Shown here: positions 5,633 to 54,646 of the stretch, one piece after another
Layout of the letters: each line of letters begins with the position of its first letter
Position numbering within the stretch: the first letter of the stretch is position 1
Assembly (NCBI RefSeq): GCF_023055435.1
Contig: NW_025963890.1
Location: 4,712,001-4,776,000, forward strand
DNA from: Haliotis rufescens
Taxonomy: Eukaryota
Direction: 5' to 3'
DNA: 64,000 nt
Notes under the pieces: generated by a model
Databases searched by the model: none
What the model was told of the DNA's origin: nothing
What the model saw: the letters and a program-made list of their open reading frames with translations, nothing else
Program-made: the position numbers and the translations under genes

Positions 5633-6335
5633 CTAATTCCCGCTAATTGACGAGCCGAGACGATACGAGGGGCAGTCGGGCGTTCTGGGGCGAGCAGAAC
5701 AACGCTCTCGGCGGTCGGTGTGGGATCTGGAATGACAGAGACATGTGAAAATATAAATAAATTATTTGATCAACGTTGTTAGAGGTTGGCAGCGATAAGA
5801 CGACATTCCTGCTTTTACCAGAACAGATGCTCTCGGCCCCCCGCCGTGAAACATCAGACGACAGTTATTGACTGGAAAAACCAACATCCATTATCCGGTA
5901 ACAAAATAGAGCTGATTATGGGTTCAAAATTTTGAAAAGAGAGAAGGTTTGTTGAAAAAGGTTCCCGGACAACACCCATAATTCCTTGTAGGTTGTCGGA
6001 ACACCGGAAACAGAAAATCATTTAAAAACAGACAAACACTAATTCCACGGACATTGACGCTAGAAAACATCGGTGTTCATGTTCCGTGTAAACTACCTCC
6101 AGAAATGAAAACGGTTTACGCAGCAGACAACACCCGTTTCTACAAGCATCTTGGGAGTTGAAATTTAAGTCTGTTCTGATTTTGCCTGGCAATAGATAAC
6201 AACCACCATTCGTCTCATCAAAGCTGCTCCGGAAATGGAAACACCATCATTTGGATTGAAACCAGTTAGGGATCAACACCCAACGTCCCTCGAGGATGAG
6301 GATAACAGTTTGTTTTGTACGCATAATCCTGAACA

Positions 6336-6583
6336 GTGAAGATCCGGGTTAGAATTGGCCTCCGGCAACGCATGATTGGCGTAAGAGGCGACTATGCTTG
6401 TCGTAAGAGGCGACTAACGAGATAGGGTAGTCAGGCTCGCTGTGTTGGTTAATACATGTCATCGTACCCTTATTGTATTGATCGATGCTCATGATGGCAA
6501 TCACTGGATTGTCTAGTCCTTCTCGAATATTTACAGACCGCCGTCACATATCTTAGTGCGCCGTTAAACAACAAACAAACAAA
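6336..6583 (+). mobile_element. Retroposon family B (no tRNA head, AAAC tail), diverged copy
   Basis: Aligns with 30742-31000; contains gcttgtcgtaagaggcgactaa and ends gttaaacaacaaacaaac. Confidence 0.85.
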
Positions 6584-7072
6584 TTCAAAATCCTTGATAC
6601 CTCTGCATATCATACTTTAACACTTGCACAATTTATGAGAATAATAGCCTGAACCATCCCCCAGCTTCGTTAAGACGTGATATAGTCTGTCATCGCGAAA
6701 CAGGATAGCTTTGATAACACCAAGGTCAGATTACAATCTTCAGAGAGAACAGCAAATATTCAAGTCAACCCAGGAATACGTCTCCATCTACACGCACGTT
6801 CGTACACCGTCACGTAACACGCAGCATAAATTACAAAGTCACGCGAGTAAAGTGGCATCTTTACTCCTGTGATTGCCACCAACAGTTGGGGTATTGTTCG
6901 ACATACGAGGGGGAGAGGGTGATAAAGTTCCTCCCTCACAGGCCGCGTCTTATCGCAGCACCAGCCACTGTGGTAGGCTCGTATCACCCTTTCGATTTAT
7001 ACGCTTCACTATACACCATCTCTCCATCCTCATTTTTTCCTTCTTTCTTTCTCTTCTTTCAGAATTCCACAA

Positions 7073-7213: not shown

Positions 7214-7378
7214 TGAGATTACCATACGTGAATATTACATTAATTTTATAACTATACAATAAAACAACTTTTAAAATAATGTTGGGATCTTCTAAATATA
7301 TAGAGACCATCTCGTCATCCGCAAAGTTGACTTCACTCATGGAAATATCTGCTTTGAAGGTAACTCAATGAGATATTA

Positions 7379-7620
7379 GGGGGCACGGGTGGCCCAGTCG
7401 TCTAAGGCGCCGCGATTGTGAAACCTATATGATTGTGGGTTCGAATCCCCGATTATGTTTCTAGGTTTGTCAGCACCATACCCGTGCTCGTGGGTTTCAC
7501 CGATGGTAAACGTCTGAGACCTGCATCACCTCAGGCTTTCCTCCCACATCAAGCTGACACGCCGTGATATAACTGGAATAATGTTAAAAGCGGCGTTAAA
7601 CCCAACTCACTCACTCACTC
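7379..7620 (+). mobile_element. SINE family C (tRNA-Leu/Ser-like head, V-domain-like middle, ACTC tail), internally deleted
   Basis: A-box-like tggcccagtcgtc, B box gggttcgaatccc, V-like gtgggtttc...tttcctcccaca; TSD aatgagatatta at 7367-7378 and 7621-7632. Confidence 0.9.
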
Positions 7621-8954
7621 AATGAGATATTAAACATGTTATCTGACAAGAAAAGACAAACCTTCTTTTTAAACATTTATTTTATTTTCTTGCATGGTTT
7701 TCCTGATCTCACTCTGAAATCCATAGTGACACTGAGGGTTACTGAAAGTACCTCCACCATCAAGTGTTACTTCACGCATGTGAAATATCGATTTTATATA
7801 TGGAGATATCTATAGCATTTCGCCACTAAATACATATTATTAATATAAAGAGTTATCTGTAGTACAGACGGACTGTTGATATTAGTGAATAATGCAGAGA
7901 AAGCCTTTGTGCTATATTGAGATGATATTGTTACACCGTCTACACTGTTTCAGGGGAGACGTTGTTTAGGAGAATTTATAGTTGGCCCCCTGCGTACATT
8001 ATGGGTAGAATAAGACTAAGTTTTACCTGTTTACCAAACTTGAACAGGACCGCGTGTAATGTTGATTTTGGTTTATTTCAAAAGCTCCAGTGTGCACGAC
8101 TGTCGTATTTCAATGGTAAGGTGAGTATTTATTACATATCGCCGTGGGTAAGTTCATACATGTGTAAGAAGTGGAGTATCAATATTACATCAGAAGAAGC
8201 GTTCGAAGGATCTCTCAATACAACTAGAGTAACGTTTTCTTCGTCCTTTTAATTCCATGTCCAGGAGTTTTAATTGAAAACTATATTTTCTCAATTATAT
8301 TTACCAAAAGGCATTCACGATTCATATGGAATTATTATTATTATTAGGTTATTTATACTTTACAGCAGGCAGGCGACTATGCTTGTCGTAAGAGGCGACT
8401 ATCGGGATCGGGTGGTCAGGCTCCCTTACTTGGTTCATGCATGTCATTGTATCCCAGTTGCGTGGATCGATGCTCATGATATCAATCACTTGATAGTTTG
8501 CTCCAGACTCGACTATTCATTCCTGTCTCTGGTCCTTTCGTCTCTGAAATGAACTATGTAACATAAAAAAAAAAAAATTTAAAAAAAAATTAAATAAAAA
8601 TTATAGTTATAAAAAATGATAAAAGGGGCCCAGGGGCTTTCTTCAGTTTCAGATACTGCTGTAATCTTGACCTACTAAATATCATAGACTTGCATGGGCT
8701 CTATTTGATATATTGTTTCAGGGTATGTATGAACGATTAACTTGTTCCTGTACGAGACTGCTCCAGCTGTAGTACGTACAGCATAAACATGTCATGAAAA
8801 GATTTGTTAGATGCTTGCGTCTTTTTCTGAATCTCTGCCAATGTACATCACATCGTATTTGTTTCGTTGACTCTTATTTACCCCTGTTTAGTTTCCGTGT
8901 TTCGGTTGTATGTACAGACTAATATTAGAGCTTTTACGGGCATTTACGGTGGAA

Positions 8955-9236
8955 TGAGTGAGTGAGTGAGTTGGGTTTAATGCCGCTTTTAACAGTATTC
9001 CAGTGATATCACGACGTGTCAGCTTAATGTGGGAGGAAAGCCCGAAGTGATGCAGGTCTCAGACATTTACCACTTCGGTGAAACCCACGAGCACGGGTAT
9101 GATGCTGACAAACCTAGAAACATAATCGGGACGAACCGGCATTCGAACCCACAATCATAGGTTTCTGGCGTGCCCAAGGGACGCAACTCTGCACAGCGAA
9201 TCGCGGCGCCTTAGACGACTGGGCCGTCCGTGCCCC
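8955..9236 (-). mobile_element. SINE family C, full length
   Basis: Near-identical to 15408-15683 and 27537-27822. Confidence 0.92.
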
Positions 9237-9506
9237 CTCCAAATGAACCCAGTTGTACACAGGGATTACGAACAGAATAGTAACTCCACCAATAAGCATA
9301 CGTTTACACTATTTACGGCGTTGGCAATTCCTGGATTACCGCTTTTTTAACTTCTATAAACTGTTAAAGGCATCAATGTCCATGAATAGAATTCACAAGG
9401 ATGGAGTTTTGGTACGATTGTGTATTGGGTGGATTTTAAGTAAGGAAAGAAAGTATTATACGTGCACGTATCAATTTCGTAGTCTGAAGGTGTTTGTTAT
9501 GGCCGA

Positions 9507-9793
9507 GTCCCGTGAAGACCCGGGGTAGGATAGGCCTTCAGCAACCCATGCTTTCCATTAAAGGCGAATATGCTTGTCGTAAGAGGCGACTAACGAGATG
9601 GAGTGGTCACGCTCGCTGACTTGGTTGATGCATGTCATCGTATCCCATTTGCTTGGGTCGATGCTCATGATGTCAATCACTGGACTGTCTGGTCCAGACT
9701 CGATTATTTTCAGACCGCCGTCATATAGCCGTAATATTGCTGAATGCGGCGTTTAACAACAAACAAACAAACAAACAAACAAACAAGTAAATC
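9507..9793 (+). mobile_element. Retroposon family B, full length
   Basis: TSD ttatggccga at 9497-9506 and 9794-9803; starts GTCCCGTGAAG; (AAAC)n tail. Confidence 0.92.
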
Positions 9794-14600: not shown

Positions 14601-15407
14601 ATTTTCAAACCATATGTATATATTTGACAGGGGACTAATGGAAGATATCTATATTATGGACGTTTGGAGTATAGACTTAAGCACACTGATTGTTATTGAA
14701 CACGGGTGATTTGGTGCTGATCCGACACTGCGTGGCTTGTCCCAAGATCCACGCGTACGGCCTGTCTGAAAAAAATTATCCACTGCTAAGGTTACATACG
14801 ACGAATGTCTTTGAGCGAGTTGCTATAAATTGTTCAAGGATGTGAGCCACCCACGATAGAGCTTTGTTCGTCATGTACGCGGTCGTGAAATCAACACTTG
14901 TTAATAGCATGCACATTTCAAATCCGTACCAACTCGTAACTCATTTCGTAATTTTCAGCAGAGAATGTTTGGGCCCCCTCGCCCCTTCTGTTGATCTTTG
15001 ATTTAAGACAATACCCATTGGCGTCGAAATTGCCAGAAAAGGGGCCACTTTCACAAGATTGGGATTGATGGGTTGCCGTCGTCATTAGAAGGTAATACAC
15101 GGACACACACATACAGCGCCTATGTGAGGTTTCACCGGAACTATGTCTGTATATGATACTCTGAAATGAACACCATAAACAAAGCCTTGTATTTTCCCAC
15201 TGAGAGACTCTCATATTGCGAATACCGTTACCGCGTTACCGGCAACGATAGCGGTAATTGAGATAATATTTTGCCTAAAGAGCTTCTCGTTCTCGCCGAA
15301 ATGTCGACTGTCTGGAATGACCACCACTGCCAATTAAGACTATAACACTCCTTAACGCCCAATGACGCCCGCACTCCTTGACAAAGATGCACCCTCCACA
15401 TCCCGGA

Positions 15408-15683
15408 GTGAGTGAGTTTGATTTAACGCCGCTTTTAACAGTATTCCAGTTATATCACGGCGTGTCAGCTTAATGTGGGAGGAAAGCCCAAAGTGATGCA
15501 GGTCTCAGACGTTTACCACTTCGGTGAAACCCACGAGCACGGGTATGGTGCTGACAAACCTAGAAACATAATTGGGGCGAACCGGGATTCGAACCCACAA
15601 TCATAGGTTTCTTGCGTGCCCAAGGGACGCAACTCTGCACAGCGAATCGCGGCGCCTAAAACGACTGGGCCACCCGTGCCCCC
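15408..15683 (-). mobile_element. SINE family C, full length
   Basis: TSD acatcccggagtga on both sides; a decayed C-like tail follows at about 15708-15830. Confidence 0.93.
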
Positions 15684-19553: not shown

Positions 19554-19817
19554 GTTTTGTTTGTTTGCTGGTTAACGCAGCACTCACAGCTATTACAGCT
19601 ATATGAATGCGGTCTGTAAATAATCGAGTCTGGATAATCCAGTGATTGACATCATGAACATCGATCCACCCAACTTGTTACGATGACATGCATCAATCAA
19701 GTCAGGGAGCCTGACCACACGATCCCGTTAGCCGCCTCTTACGACATGCATAATCACCTTTTACGGCAAGCATGGGTTGCTGACGACATACATGTATCCT
19801 ACCCCGGATCGTCACGA
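19554..19817 (-). mobile_element. Retroposon family B copy
   Basis: Reverse complement aligns along the length of 30742-31000. Confidence 0.88.
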
Positions 19818-20524
19818 AGAGCCATTAGAGCTGAGTAAACCATACTCTCTCATAATACGTAGCTGTTCAATGTTGAATGCGAAACAATGACCCTCACGCT
19901 CAACAATATCCTCTGACACCCCCCGCCCCTCCCTAACTTTCATTAACCCATCAATCGTCCTAGTAGTCACCACCCCCAGCCCTGTTTTCACTTGTCAACT
20001 GTTTGAATCCAAGTGTTCTCTCACAAAGGCCCTGCACGCTCTCGCCCCGCGCAACCTCCTGTAGTGCAGTGTATTGTTTGCATAGACGCATCCACACCGT
20101 GCCGGCATATTCCTACACAATGTGGCTACCTTATGCCGATCAACAAGCAGCAAGCTTTACAGGGCGAGCAATAAACTGGAGTATTTTTCTCAGCATATAC
20201 GATATATTTTATACATCTTTCATCCCTTGAAGCGCCCCCAGGCCTCGCAAAAACAAACATCAACAGGAAGAACACGTCGGAGTAACTCTCTCAGCTCCTT
20301 ACAGCGTCATCGCTCATCTACGTTAAAGGGGAATAACTCTAGTAGACCGACTTTAAACAGGTTCATGAGTGCACACGGACATCTAACTGCACGTGCTTCG
20401 TCTTTCTCTGGATAATCAATGAATTTACTGACATATAATGGCCATGTATTCGAAAAAGATTGCAATAAAAAGGAAAACGTAACAGTAACTTATTTTATTG
20501 CTTAACATTATATTGGTTTTTTTT

Positions 20525-20748
20525 GTGTTTGTTGGTTAACGCCTCACTCAGCAATACTTCAGTAATATCAACGGTCTTTAAATAATCGAGTCTGGACAAA
20601 AGAATCCAGTGATTGGAATGAGCATTGATCTTCCCAATTGGGATACCATAACACGCATCAACCAAGTCAGCGAGCCTGACCACCCGATCCAGTTAGTATC
20701 CCCATCCGAGCATGGGATGAAGACCTATTCTAACCCGATCTTCACAAG
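20525..20748 (-). mobile_element. Retroposon family B copy with internal deletion
   Basis: caaccaagtcagcgagcctgaccacccgatcc...cctattctaacccgatcttcac. Other B fragments lie at about 8370-8516, 22064-22172 and 35345-35450. Confidence 0.85.
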
Positions 20749-21524
20749 TCTACAGCTGTACATTATATTTTACCCGATGGTTTTTCCTAGGCATAACACG
20801 TGGTTGATCCCCTATGCATGACATGGTGTTGGTCTAATAAGACTACACATGCGTAGATTTAAAAAACATTACTGAAAATAGTTGACCCCTCTTTCTTTAT
20901 CTTAAGATAATGATTAAAGCTATAACGTTCAATAAAAGAGTTTCTTCTGAATGGGCCCTACAAAACTAGCTATAGTTTCCTACATGGAGGTGACCTTCAC
21001 ATTCCAGATCATTTAATCGTTATTTCAAACAACGTTTGAGTTAGTGAGTTTGGTTTAACGCCGCTTTGAACATTATGACAGTTGTACAATTGCGGGTCAG
21101 CTTATTCTAAGAATTGGAAATGACGTAGATGTAAAGTACACGATGTTGCTTAAAATCGGGACAAATCTGGATTTCCGACTCGTGACCATGAAACTGTAAA
21201 AGGAAGTCATCAAACGATATAAAAAAGCCGGAAGACTTAAATTAGCACGTCACCTTAAACTATAATGCCCTTTCTGAATGCTATTACTGACAAATTTGAA
21301 GATACTACACTAAGGATGTATGAGAAAAAAAGAAACGCCAAACCTAACATGATAAAGTAAGCCTCGTTTGGGGATAAAGCAGCGTTTGGAAAGAACGCTC
21401 GATGACAGCCTTTATCTGAACATCGATGCATGGCTGACTGCGACGCCTCAGCAACGTGGGCGAACAGTGACTTCTTTTAATACAACGACTTTGTAATTAA
21501 CATTAATGTAGTTCTACTGGCAAG

Positions 21525-21700
21525 AGGGGCGGTCGGGTAGCCTAGTGGTTAAAGCGTTCGCTCGTCACGCCGAAGACCCAGGTTCGATTTTCCCGACATG
21601 GGTACAATGTGTGAAGCCCATTTCTGGTGTCCCCCGCCGTGATATTGCTGGAATATATCTAAAAGCGGCTAGAACCATACTCACTCACTCACTCACTCGC
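21525..21700 (+). mobile_element. SINE family A, full length
   Basis: A box tagcctagtgg, GTC anticodon-like loop, B box ggttcgatt; TSD tctactggcaag at 21513-21524 and 21701-21712. Confidence 0.93.
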
Positions 21701-26553: not shown

Positions 26554-27536
26554 ATTGAATTCCAATGTTTTCAGCAATAATTATTAAGAAGGGTTGCACG
26601 CAGTGTACCCATATGAGGAATCGAACCCGGGTTTTGAGGAGCCAACGTTTTACTCACTTAACTACCCCACCGCTACTGTTACACAGTGATGACACCCGGT
26701 GTCTGTGATGTATGACACCTACATAATCAGCCATATACACTGAAACAAACTGACACACTTTGCAAGAGGACAGTGTGAATATAGCTGCCTAACTGTCCAC
26801 TGAATATTATTCCCATGAAGAAGTAAGGTTTGACGGTGCTTTTATAAGCCAGGGGACGGCTATATGAGTATTCTGCATTGTCCTTCTGAGGAATCGAACC
26901 CGGGCATTTGGCGTGATGAGCGGACCAGTTAACCACTCGTACGATCTACCGACCCTTAAACGAATCATTCCAGTTTTATTTGTTCCAAAAATTACATCGC
27001 GATGTGCTTATGAAACATTTAGAAATCAGTTTGAAGTTTCCAATTAGACATTTGACATGATATATAGATTCTGTGTTGGACATTTGATTATTAAAACGTC
27101 CTTTCATACATGAATAACTTGTCGTATCACATCATATGTCGTCCTCTGCTCACTGGAGAGGCACAGTGGTCAAAAGGCAAACTTCGTGCAGAGGCGTTTT
27201 ACTTAGATACCAAATTCTGCTTAGTGTGACATCGAATCCCAGTCGGCAATAGGCTATATTCATGGATTCAACTTAAGAGCTAATGGTACATGGGTTGCAT
27301 TTAACGCTGCTTTTATCATTATTCCAGCAATATACCACGGCAATCATACAAGAAATGGGCTTTGCGTAGTGTTCCTTGTGGGGAATCGAACTTGGATCGT
27401 TGGCGAGAAGAGTCAATGCTTTATCCATTAGGCCACCACACCGCACAACACCAGTAGTGTCAGGAAGTGTGATATTACAGACCAAACAGATCCCGCATTT
27501 GAACTGGTCCCCAGCTGCATATGCTGGCCGTGAGAG

Positions 27537-27822
27537 GAGTGAGTGAGTGAGTGAGTTGGGTTTAACCCCGCTTTTAACAGTATTCCAGTTATATCACAGC
27601 GTGTCAGCTTAATGTGGGAGGGAAGCCCGAAGTGATGCAGGTCTCAGACGTTTACCATTTCGGTGAAACCCACGAGCACGGGTATGGTGCTGACAAACCT
27701 AGAAACATAATCGGGGCGAACCGGGATTCGAACCCACAATCATAGGTTTCTGGCGTGTCCAAGGGACGCAACTCTGCACAGCGAATCGCGGCGCCTTAGA
27801 CGACTGGGCCACCCGTGCCCCC
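27537..27822 (-). mobile_element. SINE family C, full length, inserted in an old family B copy
   Basis: Near-identical to other C copies; B-like sequence on both sides. Confidence 0.92.
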
Positions 27823-27852
27823 TTAATCGTAAAAGGAGGCTTAATGGAACAG

Positions 27853-29149: not shown

Positions 29150-29320
29150 AGGGGCGGTCGGGTAGCCTGGTGGTTAAAGCGTTCGCTCGTCACGCCGAAG
29201 ACCCGGGTTCGATTCCCGACATGGGTACAATGTGTGAAGCCCATTTCTGGTGTCCCCCGCCGTGATATTGCTGGAATATTGCTAAAAACGGCGTAAAACC
29301 ATACTCACTCACTCACTCAC
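29150..29320 (+). mobile_element. SINE family A, full length, young
   Basis: TSD tatatccaaatc at 29138-29149 and 29321-29332; (ACTC)n tail. Confidence 0.95.
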
Positions 29321-29450
29321 TATATCCAAATCGTCATCCTAATTCAAATTTAATTATGAAAATCAAGCAGTTTATTATGACCCTATTTATACAGAAACAA
29401 TGTCGCTGTCTCGGTCAATGCATTAAGCCAATTTCAAGACCAAGCTTGTA

Positions 29451-30057: not shown

Positions 30058-30741
30058 AACCAACTAGACAGTGAATACAGTGGAAAGCAAGACTACAAGG
30101 AATGTGTGCAATTTGATGCAGACTTGATACGAACATTTCTATCCTGATTCCCTCCGTTCGTGAATAAGCATTCATTGCCGAGCCCCGCCGAGCGAGTCTT
30201 CTTCACTCGTCGACACTCTATTTCCCCCGACGTTGAACAAAACATTCTTTTTTTAAAAGTATTTGGAAAATAAATTGGAACTCGTTGTATTCTGTATATA
30301 CTCTATGTACACGAGTCGCCATCGTGTGATGCACGTGAAATGTGATCTCTGCTGCTGGTCACAAGCTCTGTGGCTAGTTCATGTTAACAATGCATGGAAC
30401 AAGGCTCTCATTCGCTTTTCCGTTTTGTGTACATGCTGCTAGGGATTATGCGAAATACAAAGCCCTGAACAAGGATGTATGTGTCTCTTGTTTTGTCAGT
30501 CTTTCTCTTGAGAGGGTAAGCCTAACTGCATTAGCACCAACATCGTTATAGCAAACATAATGACACCCCATATTATAGTCTAGGCTTTCAAGGTCTATAT
30601 AAACATTTGAACAAAAATAATATCAATTTTACACCGTGTTTCATGTGTCACCGTAGCCGATGGATACATACATGTGTCATTATAGAAAGTGATTCCAAGT
30701 GTACATAAATTTAAGTGATAATGAAGGTATGAATAATTTAC

Positions 30742-31000
30742 GACCCGTGAAGATCCGGGGTAGAATAGATCTTCAGCAACCCATGCTTGCCGTAATAGGC
30801 GACTATGCTTGTCGTTAAAGGCGACTAACGGGATCGGGTGGTCAGGCTCGCTGACTTGGTTGATGCATGTCATCGATCCCAATTGCGTTGATCGATGCTC
30901 ATGATATTAATCACTGGATTGTCTGGTCCAGACTCGATTATTTACAGACCGCCGCCATATAGCTTGAATATTGCTGAGTGCGGCGTTAAACAACAAACAA
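30742..31000 (+). mobile_element. Retroposon family B, full length reference copy (259 bp)
   Basis: Perfect 13-bp TSD atgaataatttac at 30729-30741 and 31001-31013; starts GACCCGTGAAG; no recognisable Pol III A/B boxes. Confidence 0.95.
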
Positions 31001-32850
31001 ATGAATAATTTACAACCAACTGTCCCTTCGATCAAATAGCGTGATGTTAGATGACGTGACCTTGGTGGTCATTTAGACTGTAAACCTCCACAAAGTATAT
31101 TGGAAAATACGTAAATATAATTCAAATCAGAGCGCAAAGACAGTGGCATCTCCTTAAAGGGTCTTTCGGGGTACATATGAATGTATAACTTCCACAGAGT
31201 TTCCCTTTAATAAAACAACCTGGTGTAATGATGGTGTAATGATAGCGTTTTTGAGGTTGAAAACCTTTCCCAAAACTTATCAACACATTCACGCTTCAAG
31301 ACTCCATTCAGTGACTTCGGACTATCACATTTTCGAGTCATGTACAGCGATTGAGTAGAAAACGCCGACGCAAGTGAATAACCAGTCTCGGCGAAACAGA
31401 TTCCAACAGCGTGACAGGCAAAAGAGGTTCAAAATGATATGAATGGATCACTGAAAAATCAGTGATTGCACCACGTGTTGGCGAAAGGGCTGTATTCTGT
31501 CCTGCTGGAAGCAACCGCCATTCACACAATCTGCATGCTTTTGTTGCCTAACGCCCCACAGCAGTAATCCTGACATGAAACCTGTTCTCATTTTTTACAT
31601 TTCAATAATCTGATCCCTCAGATAGAGTCTGATGTTTTCGTGAATAGCAACCTGCCTAAACACACACATCGCTAGTTATTTGAGCAGGATACTATTTTCT
31701 AATTAAATGAAAACTCCCCTCGTCTCAGCCTCTGCAGTTTCCTTTCGGAAATGCTTCATTCTTAGCCCCGTCTCTGGCTTGTTTATCCCCGTAGGCTGGA
31801 GCTCTGCTGGGTTTACTATAAAAGCATCACTTGTTTTCTCTCCGAAATGGCGATAGGCTTTCCCGTTTATATTCGCGCCATTAATTAGGTTCTCGGGCCA
31901 TCAGATAAAGACCAATGACATATGGTAGTCATGTAGAGGAAGATATAATTTGTCAGACAAATTTCTTAGGCGCATCTTCCAGACACCCGATACCTTGTCT
32001 ACAGCATTGGCCGTGAGCAGTTTGATGATCGCGTACGCTGCTAATAGGCCAGATCACGTTCTCGTAATCTCTCGCGTGATAACGCGAGAAATGGCGAGAT
32101 AGGGGGAAGGGATGTGTAAAGTGGCTTTCATTTGATTTTGTTTTAGGTAGGCCTATGGTATTGTTTCTACACCCGCAGCTGGGATAACACCAGCTTGTAT
32201 GTCTTACCTGTGTAGAAATAGTGGAATAACATTCGAGCAGGAAAATAGCCTTGTTTAACACCGGTTTCCATTGTTTGGTAAATAGGGTAACGTAACGATT
32301 CCTTTGATGTTGAAAGATGACCTGATCTGTTATTCAAAGTCAAAGGTCATATCGTTTACACAAGGTGACCGTCTCATTGACGGGATAGAGCAACATTGTT
32401 TAATATCCAGTTCTGCTATTATCCAAGGAGAAAATCGCCAACACCGTACCAGATATAAGCGAACTTTTTTTCAATAACAGGTGCAAAATATCAGCACTTT
32501 CAATGTTTCAATGTCGTAATAACAATGAAAGTCGTTGCAACAAGTATTCGTGGTGTACATTTTGATATAAATCCTGCCTTGTATATCGTTCGTAAGTAAA
32601 CTATTAATAACTTTTAATTGACAATTTTATTTCTTTACTTTCCCTATCCAATACACTAGCTGATTCTACTCTAATCAAGATCATACTCGCAATAGTCTTT
32701 ACACAGGAATAGTTAGCCGACAGGGAGGTGAGTTATTCGGAAAAATTCCAACGTCTGAACAAACGAGTTTTTGCTAACAAGCTCACACAAATCCTATACA
32801 TCATATAAAATGCTTCATTCCTCAAAATCCCAACTTTCTATACATGATTG

Positions 32851-35294: not shown

Positions 35295-36478
35295 TAGAAT
35301 CGATTCCAGGTCAGGAGAACCATAAATTAATAGCACAAGCAAGAGCCACGCCGTCTGGGTACGATGACACACAGTCATTCAATGTTGTCTACATCTCAAG
35401 ACAAGCAGGGCTACTGGTGACCTATTCAGACCCGGAATCCCTACAGGGGAACAAGGCATACGTAAGAGCGTGCATATCCCTAAGGCCCAGTGGGTATGAT
35501 TCCACTTGTACATGGCCCAGTTTGATTAACGAGTTCCTAGTGGTAATAACTGCTGACACTATGGAGGGCGACAGGATCAATGACCTACTGTCGCCCAGAC
35601 TTTAATTGGACAGTCAATGTACACTGGACGTTCTCCAGCATCCTGAACGTCATTAAGTATCCGTGGGGATACCAATACAACATCACAGACTTCAGTCCAA
35701 CATAAAATATCTGAACCCGAACTCATTATTCTTGGAATACGAATTCTAAATAATGGATAATATTTTTTTAATAATTGAAACGTTATCAGCTTAGGTTGCC
35801 TGTAACAAATAAAATATAACATTTTTTCGTTGAGGATTCAATTAACATATTTAAAAAAAAAAGAAACGTTGAAAGATAAAGCTTTGAAACTATGAATTGA
35901 TTAATGGGTTCTCTTGTGTGATGCGTGCTGCTATTTCTACCTTAATGATTCACTGGAGACAGATTAACCGTCAATCCAGCGAATAATGAACACACTTCCA
36001 TATTGACGTACTCATTGCGTGCGTCAGTGTCATAAACATTTAAAATGTCCATTAATGTTGGGTTCTACTTCTTGCAGCGGTATCAAATAACAGATTTGAA
36101 TATCATGAGACATATAATGAAAAAAAGTTAACGTCTTTGGTAATGTTGATCGTCTTTCAACTCAGTCATAATATCTCTTGCCCTAGTACTTCTAATTCAA
36201 TATCTAGGTCTGTTTAAGAATTATCGCCAAATGTTACCATGGTGACTTTCTGAAATATAAATTTTCTAACAACTATTTCAGATCTTCTGAAATCTTTTTT
36301 ATGCGAAAAGGAATTCGATGAGAAACATTAAAAACTAACAAATCAAATTACCACTGACATTTAAATGATTTTATATACAGCCTCATTAAATAGAGGGTAG
36401 TACTGAAACAGCATCAGATAATCAATAGTAAATACCAGGTTTGCATCCAAAACCATTGAAGGTCAACCAATTCCAGAC

Positions 36479-39889: not shown

Positions 39890-41075
39890 CAGCTAGAACT
39901 TCCCTAGGTAAGGTCCTTCCATACAAATGGAAAATCTCTCATAAACGCCTTTCCTTGTCTAAAGCTGGAACTTCTCTAAATAAAGCCTCTCCAAAACAAC
40001 TGCAAAAATATATAGCCTCCACGTGCAACTAGAACATCTCGACGTATTGCCCTTCAATACAACTAGAACACCTCGACGTATTGCCCTCCCATATAACTAG
40101 AACTTCTCTACCTATTGCCCTTCCACTCAACTAGAACTTCTCTACCTATTGCCCTTCCACTCAACTAGAACATCTCTACGAATTGCCCTTCCACTCAACA
40201 AGAACATCTCTACAAATTGCCCTTCCACTCAACTAGAACATCTCTACGAATTGCCTTCTATTCAACTAGAACTTCTCTACCTATTGCCCTTCCACTCAAC
40301 TAGAACATCTCTACAAATTGCCCTTCCATTCAACTAGAACATTCCCACGTATTGCCCTTCCACTCAACTAGAATATCCCTACGTAGTGCCCTTCCACCCA
40401 ACTAGAATATCCCTACGTATTGCCCTTCCACTCAACTAGAACATTCCCACGTATTGCCCTTCCACTCAACTAGAATATCCCTACGTATTGCCCTTCCACT
40501 CAACTAGAATATCCCTACGTATTGCCCTTCCACTCAACTAGAATATCCCTACGTATTGCCCTTCCACTCGACTAGAATACATTTACGAATTGCCCTTCCA
40601 TTCACCTGAAACTTCTCTACAAAGAGCCCTTCCTTACAGCTGGAACATCGTTGCATTAAGCCCTTGCGAACAATTGGAACCTCTCTGAGTAAAGAGCTTA
40701 CATACACCTGGTACTTCTCTAAGAATAGGCAATCCATATAACGGGAACACACATAAGCAGAGCCCTTCCATTCAATTGAATCACCTCTGCACAAACCCCT
40801 TCCACACAACTGGACCATCTCCGCACAAACCCTTTGATTCAACTGGAACATATCTACGTACAAAAAAAACATCCATTCAACTGGAATATCTCTTAGGAAA
40901 GCCTTTATATACAGCTTGAACAGCCTTTCTATAGAACTGGAACATATCCATTTAGAGCCCTTTTATTATGATTAAAACACTGGAACATCCCCACGTAAAG
41001 CCTATCCAACTGGAACCCCAAGGTAAGTATAGGCTTCGTATAACTAGTACATGTCTGTGTGTAGCCCTTCCATGC
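39890..41075. repeat. 34-bp minisatellite with homogeneous core (about 40026-40590) and decayed flanks
   Basis: Unit attgcccttccactcaactagaacatctctacga; about 35 units including degenerate ones. Confidence 0.93.
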
Positions 41076-43251: not shown

Positions 43252-45635
43252 CTAGCAACAGAAGATTACATCAGTGAAAATTCATATAGTGTCATCTTTT
43301 ATGATCCTGTTATGTTTACTGTGAGATGTTTAGGGTTAACAATCTTCTAGATTAAAATAGAGAGTCATTATGCTACTACCTTATAGCTTTCGACTTTCAC
43401 TTAAAGTCTTTCAAACCACGCCATCGGATCCACTCCAGTATGCTTAGACACATAAACGCACGGATTATATAGCCGCTAACAGCTTTGTTTATGGAGTTTA
43501 AACGTCCAGTAGAATTTTAAGAAACATATGCACACACAGTCCGATAAAAATAATGTTTAAATGTTTTCAACGATACCTTGCTAGATGTTTCCCACACATG
43601 TTCTTTTCTATATTTTTTTGTAAGTGAGTGAGTTTGATTTTATGCCGTGTTCATCAATATTCCAGCAATATCAGGGCGGGAAATCAGAAATCGGCTTCAC
43701 ACACTTTAGCCAGTTTGACACTAGGTTTTCAAATATTAATAATTAAGCCTGTTTCATAACCTGTGACGTCAAATTTTAATATTGCGAATTACTTATTAAA
43801 CCCCATTGTCGAGTTGTTTTGTCAAAGGTTAACATACTATCATCCACATAATCTTCCTTCTCGTATAATCCTAGATACGAGAGACCCACTCTGAATCCTC
43901 TATCAGTCACACATTCCTGTAGTTTTAATTCCTATCCTCCTTGCATTCCCACTGTACACGGGATTACATGTTTTACAAGATGAAAGGGTGTTTGTGATCC
44001 CGCCCCCACCGTGGGATGTGCCCTGATCTGACTCGCCTTACACAGTGAACTCAAACACCGTGTATACAACACCCTCTAACCAAAGATATACATTGAAGAT
44101 AAAGTAAATCTCAACATAAGCATCATATTATCACTACGCTCCTTGAAATTCTCCGAGGTGTTTTTTGAGTAACCTTAATCCCGACACAAGAACAAGAACA
44201 GTAACAAATCAGTTGGGTGGGTACAGATGGGTTATATCACTCGCTAGGGGGCGCACTACACCAAAGGCAGCGCCCCCTATGCAACAACTCTGATCAAATG
44301 GCAGATGGTTGTAATAAAACTAACAACGACAACAATTCCTTAGCTTCCATCACACCACGGAGAAGGGAATACGTATCCGGTGTTAGAGGATGTGCAAGTG
44401 TGAACCTGTTTTTTGGGTGTAGCTTACTGAATAAATGTGTTTTTATCTTCGATGTAACGTACGGTACAGCAGGGATTATATTTGGAACGAGCGACCGGCG
44501 AGTGTTGATGGAAATGTATACATCTACACTGTGTCTGTCGTGATCTGCCATGGAGTTTTCTAATACACTGTAATATGTTGTGAAAGGAACTGTAACCTAT
44601 TATTCAATGTTAGATGCTTCATCACAATGATGTATGGTACAGTGAGCAACGGAAACTGCAGATACCACAAAAAAACACACAAAAAACGTCTGACAAAGTT
44701 GATGAATTGGGGAATTACTCTCTATACCGATGGTTTTGGTATTGATTGTGTTGGCATTCCATTTTGATGGGGCCAGCAAGTTCCTGTTATCACCAATCGA
44801 GCATCCCGGCTATTTTATAGATTCTTCTGTACTGGTATTCTTATGCAACGGTAGTCACTGTCGGAGAAATTCAAATACGCTTTCCTTTTGTGTCCATTTA
44901 TTAAAAAAAGGATTTTAACCCCAACCTTAAACAAACGCATTTTCATTGTTCAAGCAAATGTGATCGATAAACCCATCAATCCACGTGGCTGTGATTTACA
45001 TGGGACCATGTTCAAACGGCCTGGTACCCATCAATCTAATTAAAATCAGATCTCTCACTCCGAAACGATGCCTCTCTGTGTAAAGATCTCAGGATGCAGA
45101 GTAGGCACAAACACACAGCAACAGTGGTATTTGAGAGATTTTGCGAGGACTGCCAAATCGTCGGAGACGTGACTCTTTTAATCTTGTGATAGTGACAGGG
45201 TCATACATACACAGTCAGTCAAATCGACCTTATACTTAAGCGGCAGTGGGTGATAATACTTAATACTAGTATGTCCTTGAGTTTTCTAGTATATAATGTT
45301 TCAACAACAAAATATTAACCTCGGAAAGTCGTTTCACTTTTTACTCTCGAATAAATCAAACAAATATCTTACAACTAACGTTGTGTTTTCTATTCTAGCG
45401 AAAGTCTGTCAAGTGATTCAAATACCTTTATGTAGTTACATTATAAAATCGTTCATGATATACCTGGAGAGAGAGAATCGTGATAGATCACCGTTGTGAC
45501 TATATCAAACTGATTGGTGTTTCTGTGTGACTGACTAAGAATATCAGCGAGCACCATGAGAATCATTACATTATATAGAAAATCAATCGCTGTCGGTGCT
45601 GCATGTGCATGCGTCCACTACCCTGTATACGTATT

Positions 45636-46085
45636 TGTTGTAGATGATGTAGATGTTGTTGTTGATGTAGATGTTGTTGATGATGTATAAGATGTAGATA
45701 TTGTTTGAAAAAGTATTTGTTGCAGGTGATGATGTTGAAGATGATGTAGATGTTGCAGATGTTGAAGTTGTTGTAGATGATGTAGATGTTGTAGTTGATG
45801 TAGATGATGTAGATGTTCCAGATGATGACGATGATGTTGTAGATGATGTAGATGTTGATGATGAAGATGTTGTAGCTGTTGGAGATGGTGTAGATGTTGT
45901 AGATGAGGATGATGATGATGTAGATGTTGTTTGATAAAGTATTTGTTGTAGATGATGATGTTGGAGAAGATGTAGATGTTGTAGATGTTGTAGATAATGT
46001 AGATGTTGATGATGTTGTGATAATGTATTTGTTGTTGACGATGTAGATAGCGTAGACGACGTAGAAGTTGTAGATGATGTAGATA
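45636..46085. repeat. Compound trinucleotide repeat (GAT/GTA/GTT) at the start of the Dmrt2 intron after coding exon 2
   Basis: gtagatgatgtagatgttgtt... low-complexity tract. Confidence 0.92.
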
Positions 46086-46101
46086 CAGTAGGTGTACTTA
46101 C

Positions 46102-46264: not shown

Positions 46265-46640
46265 TGAAACACTTTGTGTGTAGCTTGTAATGTCTTGTGA
46301 ATGATGTGTAGCACGTTGTGTATAACTTGTAATACTTTGTCTATCACCAACAACACTTTATGTATAACTGTAACACTTCATGTAGTAATACTTTGTGTAT
46401 AATATGTTATACTTTGTATATAACTAGTAATACTTTGTAGATGACGTTATTCTTTGTGTCTAACTTGTAATACTTTGCGAATGACATGTAACTATCAGTG
46501 TATAACTAGCAATACTTTGTGAATGATATGTAACACTTCGTGCATAACTAGTAGTACTATAGCAATAGTCACACATAGTATGTGACCAGTAATACTTAAA
46601 GAATGACCTTTGGAACTTTCCGTAAGGCATGTAATACTCT
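46265..46640. repeat. Degenerate 21-22 bp tandem repeat
   Basis: Recurring gtaatactttgtgtataactt-like units next to the exon 2 acceptor. Confidence 0.8.
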
Positions 46641-46783
46641 ACGCCGCTTTTAGCAATATTCCAGCAATATCACGGCGGGGGACACCAGAAATGGGCTTTA
46701 CACATTGTACCCATGTCGGGAATCGAACCCGGGTCTTCGGCGTGACGAGCGAACGCTTTAACCACTAGGCTACCCGACCGCCC
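46641..46783 (-). mobile_element. SINE family A, young copy lacking the tail end
   Basis: Near-identical reverse match to 29150-29295. Confidence 0.93.
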
Positions 46784-48236
46784 TGTAATGTCTGTAAAGG
46801 TGTGTGTAGGAAACATACAAGAACGTGAATAAGTTGTGCTTTTACATCAGCCATATAACAAATAATACATTCATCAAACGCTGTCAATATAGGCAGGAAA
46901 TAATAATAGTAAACATCACAGACGAAGCACATCGATGAAAGTAAAATACTTAAAAAAATAAATGAAGTTTATTGAACCACATATTCACAAATGTATTAAT
47001 TAAAACGAGGCAAATATCTATTCTTACATTCTTACTATAACAATTCAATATATAGACAATAATATTGACAAACAAGTAATTACTGACGCCATCTGTTGGG
47101 TTTGTTATTGGGGAATCAGGGTAATGCGTTAGCTCGTCGCGGAGAAAACCAGGTGTTCAATTCCCAAAGTGGCTACATTATGTGAAGCCAGTTCATGTTA
47201 TCAAAGTGGTGATATGGCTGAAGTAATATCGTTTTGAAACCAAAACTATCACACCTCTGACTGAATCATATTCTCTTGGGTCAATAAATGATTACTTATT
47301 TCAGTAAGACGTTTGTCTAAATGAATGCACTTTGAGTGGTTGGCATGGAATTGCACTCCTATGTAAATCAACCAGCAAGATTAATTTCTTTTTGTCGATG
47401 GTAAGTTTGCAAGAACACACATTGTCAACTTGTACAGGTTTAGCCTAAACATTGAAACAATATACACTGACGATTGATTGGGTGTGACTGAGGCAATTTT
47501 GATTATTTTACGACTTTGTGTGCAGTAAACATGCATAGTTTCACCCTGTCTTGGGGTTATTTTCATTTACAAATGCATCCCTTGTTAACAAGCTAGGATG
47601 TGTGCCATAAGCGTTTATTTGGGCTGGGGAATTAACATTATCAATGATGCCACTATATCGTGCGTTGGGTTCATCGGCGTGAGGGTCCATATATCAGTTC
47701 AAAGTCTCGTAACAGATTAATCATTTCCTGCAGCTATAAATGTTAAAGGCTGTTTGCTTATATGTTTATTAAGACACGCTTTATCATTGACAATTATGTT
47801 TCTTATAATATTGGGTTCAGGTTTAGCCCACGGCTGCACAGAGTGCAAATGTCATATCGCTAATTGGTAACGTTACACGCACTATCGGACGTCAGCACGT
47901 ACTGCACGTGTCGCGCGAGGTAAGCGTTTGTGTGATTCTACTTTTGTTTATGAAAGCTCGCTAATTTGATAAGATAATTAACCTTGAAAATAAATTATTG
48001 TTGACATGATAACGCCAGACGTGACAAGGTGATATTAACATATTTTAGTGAAATGCACTTGGTATTAATCATTTAGATTGTTCGTTCATAGTTTGACGTT
48101 GCCACTGCTAATGATTGAGTAATGCATGTACTGTATCAGTGGGCTGTTTCCAGTTGAGGTATTTGTGATGCTATTAACTTATAGTCAATTTAATTGCCCC
48201 TAGACTAGAATTCCATATGGCGGTTTGAAATGGGTT

Positions 48237-48520
48237 TTTTCGTTTAACACCGCACGCAACAATATTTCAGCTGAATGACGACGGTGTGTAAAGAAACGAG
48301 TCTGGACCAGACTGTCCAATGATTGACATCATGAACATCTACGCAATTGGTATACGATGACATGCATCAACCAAGTCAGCGAGTCCACCCCCCACCCCCC
48401 CACCCCCCCCCCCCCCCACCCCCACCCCCACCACCACCCCCCACCCCCGATCCCGTTATTCGCCCTTTACGACACGTATGGGTAGCTGAAGACCAATTTT
48501 AACACCGATCTTCACAGGTG
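48237..48520 (-). mobile_element. Retroposon family B copy with internal poly-C/CCA expansion
   Basis: B body on both sides of the C tract at 48386-48448. Confidence 0.85.
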
Positions 48521-49852: not shown

Positions 49853-50025
49853 GGGGGCGGTCGGGTAGCCTAGTGGTTAAAGCGTTCGCTCGTCAAGCCG
49901 AAGACCCGGGTTCGAATCCCGACATGGGTACAATGTGTAAAGCCCATTTCTGGTGTCCCCCACCGTGATATTGCTGGAATATTGCTAAAGCGGCGTAAAA
50001 CCATACTCACTCACTCACTCACTCA
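49853..50025 (+). mobile_element. SINE family A, full length
   Basis: Matches family A; (ACTC)n tail. Confidence 0.93.
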
Positions 50026-50052
50026 TATACTGTTGTGTTCTGGTTATTACTA

Positions 50053-50810: not shown

Positions 50811-52297
50811 CACAACACTATCGGATGATATTGAAGACACTTTTCAATTAGCAAACTAGTAATTAAAATATATATTTGTTGGAAAAGGCCTGGTTATATT
50901 GCACTTAAAAAGGTGATCTGTAACAAAAGCGACAAAACCCTTTCTGTAGCCACGATAAACCTCCGCCAAAAGCAGAGTCGACTGTACGATAGGTACAGTG
51001 TAATATTAATCGGTTTCATCTGGTGACATTTATGCAGGTGACTTTCAAATATATATTTTGTTATCCTTTTGTACATCCTATCAACCATTCGACAGGGAAC
51101 GACTACATAATATTAATAATTTCAAAATGAGAGGATGTGTCTGACAGTGACATGTGCTCAATACCGTGAATCGGATATGTTAAACTAAATATACCGTCTA
51201 ACTACAGAAACAATCATTTGAAACAAAACCTAAACCATTATGTATAGTTGTTTTTCAATGCTAAAGCAACATCAGTACTTTGGTGCCTACATTTATTGTA
51301 AAGATAGAATTCGAACCAGACTAACTTGTGGTTGATAGCATGAACAACTTGCCATGTCTTCAGGGCACAACGTTACAATATTTCAGGTTAAACGTTTTAC
51401 ACATGATCCGGGTTTAAGTCGACTCCTGCGACAAGCATGAAGTGTATACATCATATGCCCCGGAATCCCCACGGGTGACAAACTTGGGGTACATTGGGCT
51501 ATACCACCATGGGTCATCCGCTGGACTAGAGCATTGGGTACGACTAATGGTGTCGCAGATCTCCCACGGGGTGTCAAGCAGGGGGTACCATTCTACCCCA
51601 CGACCCCCACAGGGTCACAGTCATGGGGTTCATGGATCACATTCTACCCCAGAACACCCACGAAGATGTTTCCCCGATCAAAGTAATTCCCTTTCATTTC
51701 ACAACGGCGACAATCATTCTTAGCAACTGAATAAAGACGCAATATGTGAGACTCAATATGACGTCCGACCCCATGTAATAAAAGTTTAACGGGATAAAAA
51801 CAAAAACAATTTTTCAAAAGCACTACAAACCTTCAAATACCATGCATGTGACATTTACAGCGTAGTGACAGGGTTCGGCGTCACCTTCAAAACTCTTTCA
51901 TCTGAGCAGGACGGAAATTGCCTGGCGTCTCGACCAAGGCTTGTGTTCCGAAAGAGCTCTAGTTCCCTACGGTGAGGCTCGTCAGAACACAGGTGATAGC
52001 CACTACCAGGGGGATACCGTGCTCAAACTTTGTCCAGCCTTTTCTTTTACGTATCAGATTTCTCTCAACATTTAGACTGCAATCGGTGGTGGGGATTACT
52101 ACTTAATGATTACCAACGGGCACTGGAATATAGACTGGGTCAAGTCCCGATGGAATCGGTGGTGACCGTGCTCGGATTTCAACGTTGAACAATAATAAGC
52201 AGGCTCATGTGCAGAGCATAAGAATCACCATCATGCTGTAGTCAATCTCACTAAAAAATATTGATTTTACTTTATTCATGCATTCATTTATCCATTA

Positions 52298-53838: not shown

Positions 53839-54022
53839 TAATATTCCAGCTATATGACGGCCGTAAATAATCGAGTCTGGACCAGAGAATCCCGTGATCA
53901 ATCCACGCCCTCGGTGTACGATGACATACAATCAGCCAAGTCCCCGAGTCTGACCATTAAGTCGCCACTTAAGACCTGCATAGGTAGCTGGGGAGCCATT
54001 CTAACCCGGGATCACCAGGGGG
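53839..54022 (-). mobile_element. Retroposon family B, diverged copy abutting the gap
   Basis: aatattccagctatatgacggccgtaaataatcgagtctggaccaga...cattctaacccgggatc. Confidence 0.8.
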
Positions 54023-54646
54023 TTATTTTTGGGCAAACCCACATCTTGAAAGTTCCAACCGTTGAACGGGACCACCGGCACCGATAACGATAGAAGCAGG
54101 TTACTGTTATATGCATTATAAGGGATAGGGTGATCCTGAACAACACAGAGGAATGAAGATTCAGATTCAAGTACATGAATGGTGGAAAGGGTCATGTTCT
54201 TCTATATGGTCGACGAAATTCCTAAATGGAATCATAAATAAACTTTGTGATAACCAACCTGAAATAGCGGAGAAATTTTGGTTCAACTCCTCAGGGCACA
54301 GGCAAAGAAAATATCATAAACGAATAACTATTCTATGGATAAATTAACCCATACAGATTCTAAAGGCATGATCAATCGTAATTGATGATAAATAATATAA
54401 ATTATTGGGTTTGAATTTGTTCTGCTTTTTTGTTATAATTTTGTCTTTTGTTGAATATTACTTGTGAAAGTTCAATGTATTTGTGATTAGTCATCGCGGT
54501 GTTTATTTTGAAGTTCATGATAGCGAACAGAATACCACATGGGGTCAGACATGAGTATAGTGCTAGTTTACTCCAACAGTGTAGTGAATCTTCATTCATT
54601 TCAAGTATAATCACTTAACTAATGATTCAATCGTTATCGGTCAACA

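Follow-up and report, generated by a model that had tools for sequence, protein, structure and literature searches.

What sets the 5' end of a retroposon that lacks a tRNA-derived head? The question is raised by a 259-bp element in the window, by which we mean the whole 64,000-nt stretch of Haliotis rufescens DNA analysed here. In the reading that we prefer, to which we give a probability of roughly 0.4, the head of this LINE-mobilised SINE is a non-catalytic RNA module that would dock the host translation machinery on uncapped RNA and would also halt a 5'-3' exonuclease, giving the element its fixed 5' end.

SINEs of the LP (LINE-promoter) type were published in 2016 from Haliotis, oysters, scallops and Littorina. 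The ~70-nt head that they share with Nimb-17_LMi, I-3_DR and RTE-9_CPB was proposed to be a promoter; an RNA fold, a partner LINE and viruses are not given in the parts of the paper covered (PMC4758252). The element studied here resembles Hdi_LP and Hmi_LP in having a LINE-derived head of ~70 nt instead of a tRNA, variable target-site duplications (TSDs), a tail of tandem repeats, and a length of 259 bp compared with 255 bp for the Hdi_LP consensus (PMC4758252). The scallop heads labelled "Nimb-17 homology" (Fig. S2, PMC4758252) have an identical core and, by eye, could form the stems S1, S2 and H3 and the second pseudoknot, PK2, that are described below. By sequence the element is a SINE of the published LP type, judged from the description and the scallop heads rather than from an alignment to the Hdi_LP consensus, and the suspicion of the first-pass annotation that the sequence might already be catalogued was sound.

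Since the element matches the published type, the SINE family is already known; its RNA fold and distribution are apparently undescribed. The exact 18-letter core was not found in the searchable literature text, and, apart from the 2016 paper, LP-SINE terms brought up one passing mention of RTE-9_CPB and nothing else. Searches combining exoribonuclease-resistant RNA (xrRNA) with retrotransposons or transposable elements, or retrotransposon with RNA virus and pseudoknot, gave nothing on the module in the literature within reach, which left aside most subscription journals, Repbase and Dfam notes, figures and bioRxiv supplements. For RNA viruses, the parts covered of one source report only known ribozyme classes (PMC13725137).

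The element and its 5' end

The genome (1.33 Gb) holds at least some 24,000 intact cores, counted as 23,992 exact matches to a 26-letter core with none for the reversed control, and nhmmer found 52 SINE matches in 264 kb. Behind the core, only SINE variants were seen among the 30 of 261 matches examined for non-SINE bodies. That full copies share a fixed, TSD-defined start, as first proposed, was borne out in a sample of 41 full-length copies from the same genome: TSDs were resolvable in 18, of which 15 begin 2 nt ahead of CCCG (12 of them exactly and 3 with GA microhomology) and 3 are off by 1 nt, in a sample that leans young because 24 of the 41 copies were picked as best matches to copy 30742.

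The reported lack of Pol III boxes also held. In copies 30742 and 9507 no A box was found at 0-1 mismatch and no exact B box, and a tRNA-SINE control gave both; neither the box scan nor Rfam detected a tRNA-like head in these two copies, and no Rfam family matched the SINE head. The last hairpin module of the head, H4, is duplicated in 40 of 46 intact copies by a rough parse, and the window copies have the H4 counts originally described, tandem at 6336, 9507, 19554 and 30742 and single at 48237. The copies in the window, with the anatomy of copy 30742, are set out in Table 1.

Table 1. SINE copies in the window and the parts of copy 30742
Feature	Position	Strand	Basis
Left target-site duplication, 13 bp	30729..30741	+	TSD match
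Full LP-type SINE copy, 259 bp	30742..31000	+	TSD-bounded
Right target-site duplication	31001..31013	+	perfect 13-bp match to 30729-30741
Fixed 5' end; 5' strand of S1 in pseudoknot 1, with CCCG core at 30744-30747	30742..30747	+	
Loop L1, 1 nt, U30748	30748	+	
S2 5' strand, 7 bp, strongly covarying	30749..30755	+	
S1 3' strand (30756-30759), then A-rich loop L3 with conserved AGAAUA	30756..30767	+	
S2 3' strand	30768..30774	+	
Hairpin H3, with the pseudoknot 2 5' strand in its loop (30779-30783)	30775..30787	+	
H4 module, first (duplicated) copy, one stem mismatch	30788..30810	+	
Hairpin H4, G-C closed 7-nt loop U-W-N-R-A-G-G, T-loop-like	30811..30825	+	
UAA linker and pseudoknot 2 3' strand	30826..30833	+	
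SINE body, without good match to partner LINEs	30834..30945	+	blastn
3' tail homologous to motif-bearing LINE tails, (CAAA)n-like repeats at end	30946..31000	+	
Second full copy, TSD-flanked	9507..9788	+	12-bp TSD, one mismatch
Diverged near-full SINE copy, H4 duplicated	6331..6585	+	
Diverged near-full SINE copy, H4 duplicated	19554..19820	-	
Diverged SINE copy, single H4, G-rich expansion	48232..48520	-	
Decayed SINE copy	20515..20750	-	
Older-subfamily SINE copy, single H4, runs into N	53839..54023	-	
SINE copy, 5'-truncated	8368..8519	+	
Solo SINE head, decayed	51404..51477	-	
Solo SINE head, decayed	35373..35449	-	

A predicted double pseudoknot

The SINE head is predicted to fold as a compact double pseudoknot with a T-loop-like hairpin. 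In the supported structure, pseudoknot 1 (PK1) is made of S1, in which the 5' CCCG pairs with the first loop, a single U, the 7-bp S2 and the A-rich AGAAUA stretch; hairpins H3 and H4 follow, and PK2 joins the H3 loop to the strand after H4. The 7-nt loop of H4 resembles the T-loop consensus of tRNA. In copy 30742 the first base, G30742, is able to wobble-pair with U30761.

Covariation was assessed in an alignment of 19 non-viral rows, one or two per family, made with MAFFT and not fitted to structure. The fold pairs in 84.7% of 437 cells, as against 72.1 ± 1.2% after shuffling, and none of 500 shuffles was as high; double-change cells number 56 compared with 21.6 when shuffled, and slid registers pair in at most 48.3% of cells. 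S1, S2, H3 and PK2 all covary, G-U pairs included. For PK2, a swap-permutation test on 23 rows (17 non-viral, 6 viral) gave 4.13 pairs with a row's own strands and 3.11 with swapped ones (p ≤ 5e-5), the strands being exchanged between rows as CCUGG/CCAGG and CCAGG/CCUGG; one row (MAG178) was mis-parsed and two (metaF and vir042) were given no H3, and all three were counted. The p-values of this test for S1, S2 and H3 are inflated because the parser selected those stems by pairing. PK2 is weak or absent in several rows (0 pairs in vir038; 2 pairs in vir045, MAG175 and metaE), and at least 13 of 80 metagenome rows are without the S1 and S2 5' strands and were excluded from the alignments. Conservation of AGAAUA and of the H4 core is by construction, since the search patterns demanded both, and the rows are also related.

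This covariation across families sustains the first-pass description of the head as a structured RNA module, though with different long-range pairs. The hairpins GAAGAUC/GAUCUUC, AGCA/UGCU and GUCG/CGAC are all present; the UAAGAGG form given for the second hairpin loop occurs in copy 9507, but copy 30742 has UUAAAGG. Neither of the long-range interactions first drawn survived. A kissing loop of GGGU with ACCC can form in copy 30742, and a closing stem CCCGU/ACGGG appears in the MFE fold of that copy, but swap permutation across families gave p = 0.22 and p = 0.63, respectively; together they pair in 55.0% of cells, 392 of 500 shuffles being as high, and they were rejected as no better than chance. 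The actual partners are the element's own 5' end for the first loop and the strand after UAA for the ACCCA loop.

The by-eye statement that hammerhead, HDV-like and twister cores are lacking proved correct, in that known cores are absent on the sense strand and no Rfam ribozyme matched. Hammerhead, twister, pistol, hatchet and twister-sister gave no Rfam match; their known cores are absent on the plus strand, and the one CUGANGA on the minus strand is without GAAA. The module does resemble the HDV-like heads of non-LTR elements, such as Pr77 of L1Tc (PMC3383444), in being short and in its conservation at the 5' extremity of LINEs and SINEs that are otherwise unrelated. Unlike them, it does not follow the HDV order P1-P2-P3-L3-P1.1-P4-J4/2 with an L3 loop of UCCUCG type, P3/L3 being missing from the parse, and the main lineage of partner LINEs has a separate HDV-like fold directly upstream of it. 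On strand order and Rfam, the module was rejected as an HDV, twister, hammerhead or pistol ribozyme. Several metagenome repeat families (L052, L079, L105 and similar) carry only its 3' two-thirds, from AGAAUA onward, behind other sequence.

Partner LINEs and an upstream HDV-like fold

The head is 80% identical over 61 nt to intact LINE heads in the same genome, which upholds its proposed derivation from a LINE 5' UTR. Eighteen of 20 regions around endonuclease matches hold ORF2 elements of one group (1,228-1,238 aa); of the remaining two, one is a motif-less family and one (L328) is without the head. These partner LINEs are ~6.1-6.2 kb long, with the module at the 5' end and an ORF2 with APE, RT and RNase H domains in a layout that we take to be I/Nimb-like. 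Against their tails the SINE tail scores 53-56, shuffles having means of ~29 and maxima of 45-49, and a motif-less LINE scores 31. The dominant RNase H LINE (L259-L277) was rejected as partner: it starts with CAGTT, is without the motif and has tail scores like those of shuffles. In L261 (7500-7900, minus strand) and L264, this motif-less LINE carries an inverted fragment of the SINE tail inside its 5' UTR.

Directly upstream of the module, most partner LINEs carry a 58-nt fold with the structural features of an HDV-like ribozyme, which it putatively is. By eye it consists of P1 (7 bp), P3 (3 bp), L3, CUAA and P2 (7 bp) in nested double-pseudoknot strands, with a G1-U wobble, the J4/2 C present and the 5' end at G1; against Rfam RF02682 it reaches E = 0.0052 and 27.5 bits, below the 44-bit gathering score. 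G1 is where all 14 clear TSDs of HDV-first LINEs end, two showing 1-nt microhomology, and one further row is ambiguous. The candidate (L318:1734-1791; also L309-L319 and L324-L327) is minimal, with P4 almost absent, and occurs in ~1,000 I/Nimb-like LINE copies; a literature search on Nimb and ribozymes gave no mention of Nimb in the matches found.

In this HDV-first lineage, 1,031 heads have the HDV P2 strand attached. A search able to detect about half of any copies starting at the module found none, two matches with a purine at -4 both being decayed SINE-like copies. The module itself is 93% conserved in the lineage and the later UTR 40-58%, and in S2 an A-U pair is replaced by C-G, a compensatory change; because the first ~305 nt of these LINEs are 89-98% conserved as a whole, recent 5'-end exchange among subfamilies could mimic selection.

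The first-pass annotation had cast the head as a LINE-derived structured RNA acting as a ribozyme, a promoter or an RT-recruiting structure. A LINE-derived structured RNA it appears to be; the ribozyme is disfavoured. Neither the viral occurrences nor the HDV-like fold upstream in the partner LINE figured in that annotation. A new class of self-cleaving RNA, cutting immediately 5' of S1's first base, would account for single-nucleotide precision at a pairable base (G-U in the SINE, U-A in the LINE lineage that carries the motif only), and a compact double pseudoknot is ribozyme-like; in the HDV lineage the pair is broken, and overlap with the last pair of HDV P2 could mask the site. Yet a cutter or a start site at the module would remove the upstream HDV-like ribozyme, and the 1,031 HDV-first heads retain its strand; these heads, with no module-start copies found, argue against self-cleavage as the main job of the module. 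Its terminal pair is not conserved in viral rows, a cut would sever the 3' end of the six viral genomes described below, and the sense strand offers no known core or Rfam ribozyme match. Self-cleavage is, on balance, unlikely.

In the second, motif-only LINE lineage, the HDV-like fold was absent in 25 of 25 heads examined, of 37, and 22 of the 25 start at U, 2 nt before CCCG, with a random next base and no extra G. An ORF2 tree did not resolve the ancestry of motif-only and HDV-first LINEs. Across motif-first families the first base, 2 nt before CCCG, is thus G in the SINE, U in the motif-only LINE, and A and G in one TSD-resolved copy each. The same structural start with different first bases, including a U without an extra G, suggests processing, not initiation.

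Transcription initiation prefers purines, and the family that starts at U stands against an internal promoter acting at the DNA level, as proposed for LP-SINEs in 2016. So do the covariation of the stems with G-U pairs, the failure to find module starts in the HDV lineage, and the presence of the module in viruses with RdRp genes, which presumably have no DNA stage. A promoter would suit the 5'-terminal position and the fixed start, and the dual promoter/ribozyme Pr77 of L1Tc is a precedent (PMC3383444), but we regard it as very improbable.

ORF1 of the LINEs is preceded by 6-18 upstream AUGs, and the module lies ~500-600 nt upstream of the ORF1 AUG. Another ~175 nt of the 5' UTR (L318:1865-2040) are also conserved, with covarying hairpins and a possible third pseudoknot. 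The L318 5' UTR region is 70% identical over 249 nt to L178, a scaffold from a bacterial assembly, and a larger translation element is conceivable.

The module in viruses and prokaryotic assemblies

A pattern scan of metagenome contigs gave at least 122 stretches with the motif. A model built from non-viral rows scored 44.6-71.3 bits on eight viral contigs (L037, L038, L041, L042, L043, L045, L170 and L347); pattern-only loci (10 and 14 in two sets) reached at most 17.8 bits with the same model. The probable RNA viruses number six, because L038 and L043 are one virus: four have a tombus-like RdRP_3 (one via L331), one has RdRP_4, and one has a recognised S-domain capsid only. Between the last stop and the module there are 4-196 nt in the six RNA-virus-like contigs, and 3-108 nt separate it from the contig end; L037 carries a second copy in tandem, cut off. 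L170 is a 212-kb AT-rich DNA virus contig, of a size that presumably recalls an invertebrate iridovirus; there the module lies between two same-strand genes, with no TSD found around it. Relatives of two viral proteins led to no further viruses, and PDB searches with two viral ORFs gave no matches.

Prokaryote species genomes gave six motif matches, of which five carry the fold or most of it. One of these bacterial assemblies, L178, contains a relative of the LINE (ORF1 41% identical) and is therefore probably host (animal) DNA in a symbiont scaffold; for the other four (L173, L175, L177 and L174) we infer contamination. Phages gave no motif match, and the module is nearly absent from prokaryotes.

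The viral positions bear on a reading in which the module is purely an xrRNA, one that only blocks Xrn1, defines retroposon 5' ends and makes short viral 3' subgenomic RNAs. Retroposon 5' ends are position-defined with differing first bases, the module lies 4-99 nt past the stop in five of the six RNA-virus contigs, L037 has its tandem copy, and S1 forms a pseudoknot that involves the 5' end, as in known xrRNAs (PMC8374639). Viral xrRNAs in general (flavivirus classes, tombus/luteo type, coremin) share with the module a 5'-end pseudoknot, a place at the start of the viral 3' UTR, tandem copies and a fixed downstream 5' end (PMC8374639, PMC10321173). Unlike them, it has no three-way junction and no Rfam match, and its resistance is a candidate property; according to a 2021 review, viruses were then the only source of characterised xrRNAs (PMC8374639). 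In L347, moreover, the module is 3 nt from the contig end, which leaves little to protect, although the contig may be cut short. Exonuclease block alone leaves unaccounted for the retention of the fold, compensatory change included, in a lineage that has an HDV-like ribozyme upstream and yielded no module-start copies. On RNA with a 5'-OH end, a passive block of this kind would do nothing. Resistance as the sole function is thus doubtful, if less so than the other alternatives.

Proposed function of the module

Compared by topology and not by sequence, the module resembles the T-shaped structure (TSS), the 3' cap-independent translation enhancer of turnip crinkle virus (TCV) and umbraviruses, in which three hairpins and two H-type pseudoknots come in the same order (PMC5336357). 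In both, the partner of the first loop lies upstream and that of the second is at the third hairpin's 3' base. The TSS is 3'-proximal in tombusvirids, and four of the six RNA-virus-like contigs here have a tombus-like RdRP_3. It binds 60S and 80S ribosomes, enhances cap-independent translation and matters for the non-coding satellite RNA satC (PMC5336357, PMC9780821, PMC5712577). The module is smaller, ~75 nt compared with ~100, and its third hairpin is a small T-loop-like arm of 4-5 bp; its conserved A-rich stretch lies inside loop L3, whereas that of the TSS lies upstream. No upstream adenylate run of the TSS type, which supports the first pseudoknot there, was found: only 2 nt precede the S1 core in retroposon copies, and the 23 rows show no conserved upstream As. 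H4 is, we presume, much smaller than TCV H5. A value of -21.8 kcal/mol for TCV H5 implies a larger hairpin than H4 (PMC5336357). The module also heads retroposons, unlike the TSS, and ribosome binding by it is suggested by analogy.

Another possibility is a polymerase or RNP scaffold, in which the fold would bind the element's own RT or ORF1 protein, or the viral RdRp, in replication or in completing the 5' junction. The TSS region binds RdRp and matters for non-coding satC (PMC5336357), and the module is near-terminal in both of its contexts. The enzymes of its hosts are unrelated, however (I/Nimb-like RT; RTE, according to the 2016 paper; RdRP_3; RdRP_4; a DNA virus), and its loops are near-identical. 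This combination points to a shared host partner and makes a scaffold improbable.

We favour the dual, non-catalytic role over, in falling order of likelihood, an xrRNA only, a ribozyme, a polymerase scaffold and a promoter, because of the start positions, the conservation in the HDV lineage, the TSS-like strand order and the upstream AUGs. Read-through transcripts would be trimmed by Xrn1 or Xrn2 to the first S1 base, a step to which we give about even odds. The fold would bind 60S/80S ribosomes or another host translation factor, as the TSS does, which we place a little short of even; this could help the LINE ORFs behind their 6-18 upstream AUGs and let the non-coding SINE sit where the LINE RT is made. 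The LINE RT would recognise the shared tail and copy the RNA by target-primed reverse transcription, both of which are established for SINE-LINE pairs. Against the dual role, Xrn1 is not stalled by H-type pseudoknots of the ordinary frameshift kind (PMC10321173). The small H4, the ~500-600 nt between the module and the ORF1 AUG, the weak or missing PK2 in several rows, the metagenome rows without the S1 and S2 5' strands, the possible 5'-end exchange among LINE subfamilies and a cut site that HDV P2 could mask also count against it. In broader terms, and more tentatively still, the module may be a mobile RNA that has moved between LINEs, SINEs, RNA viruses and a large DNA virus and that both halts Xrn1 and binds ribosomes.

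A LINE/SINE head left unexplained in 2016 is thereby given a covariation-backed fold, and one ~75-nt module links retroposon 5' ends with viral 3' UTRs. A single short RNA makes two questions testable: are there cellular xrRNAs, and by what means are LINE RNAs that are uncapped and cut by a ribozyme translated, and hijacked by SINEs without a Pol III head? LINE lineages with and without the upstream HDV-like ribozyme are a natural built-in control. If the proposal is true, the module would be the first xrRNA shown working in cellular genomes and would represent a third route, besides promoters and ribozymes, to a precise retroposon 5' end.

Small RNAs and other repeats

Reads from three small-RNA runs of one related species, most of them antisense, numbered 7, 116 and 13 for the SINE and 0, 173 and 3 for the LINE head; among the few sense reads there was no pile-up at the SINE or LINE 5' end. 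In one run, an antisense small RNA of ~31 nt covers pseudoknot 1 of the LINE head (L318:1797-1827), 127 of 128 reads sharing a start, and is piRNA-like by size.

Another SINE family in the window, derived from tRNA, shows clear A and B boxes (49854-50028, 29151-29325, 21524-21698 and 46640-46783). A repeat family of ~280 bp, possibly a MITE, has ends that resemble part of the tRNA-SINE family (7378-7621, 8951-9238, 15406-15683 and 27536-27823). Short-period tandem arrays, in ~34-bp multiples and of 27 bp, lie at 39890-40922 and 45631-46095 and are possibly coding repeats or minisatellites.
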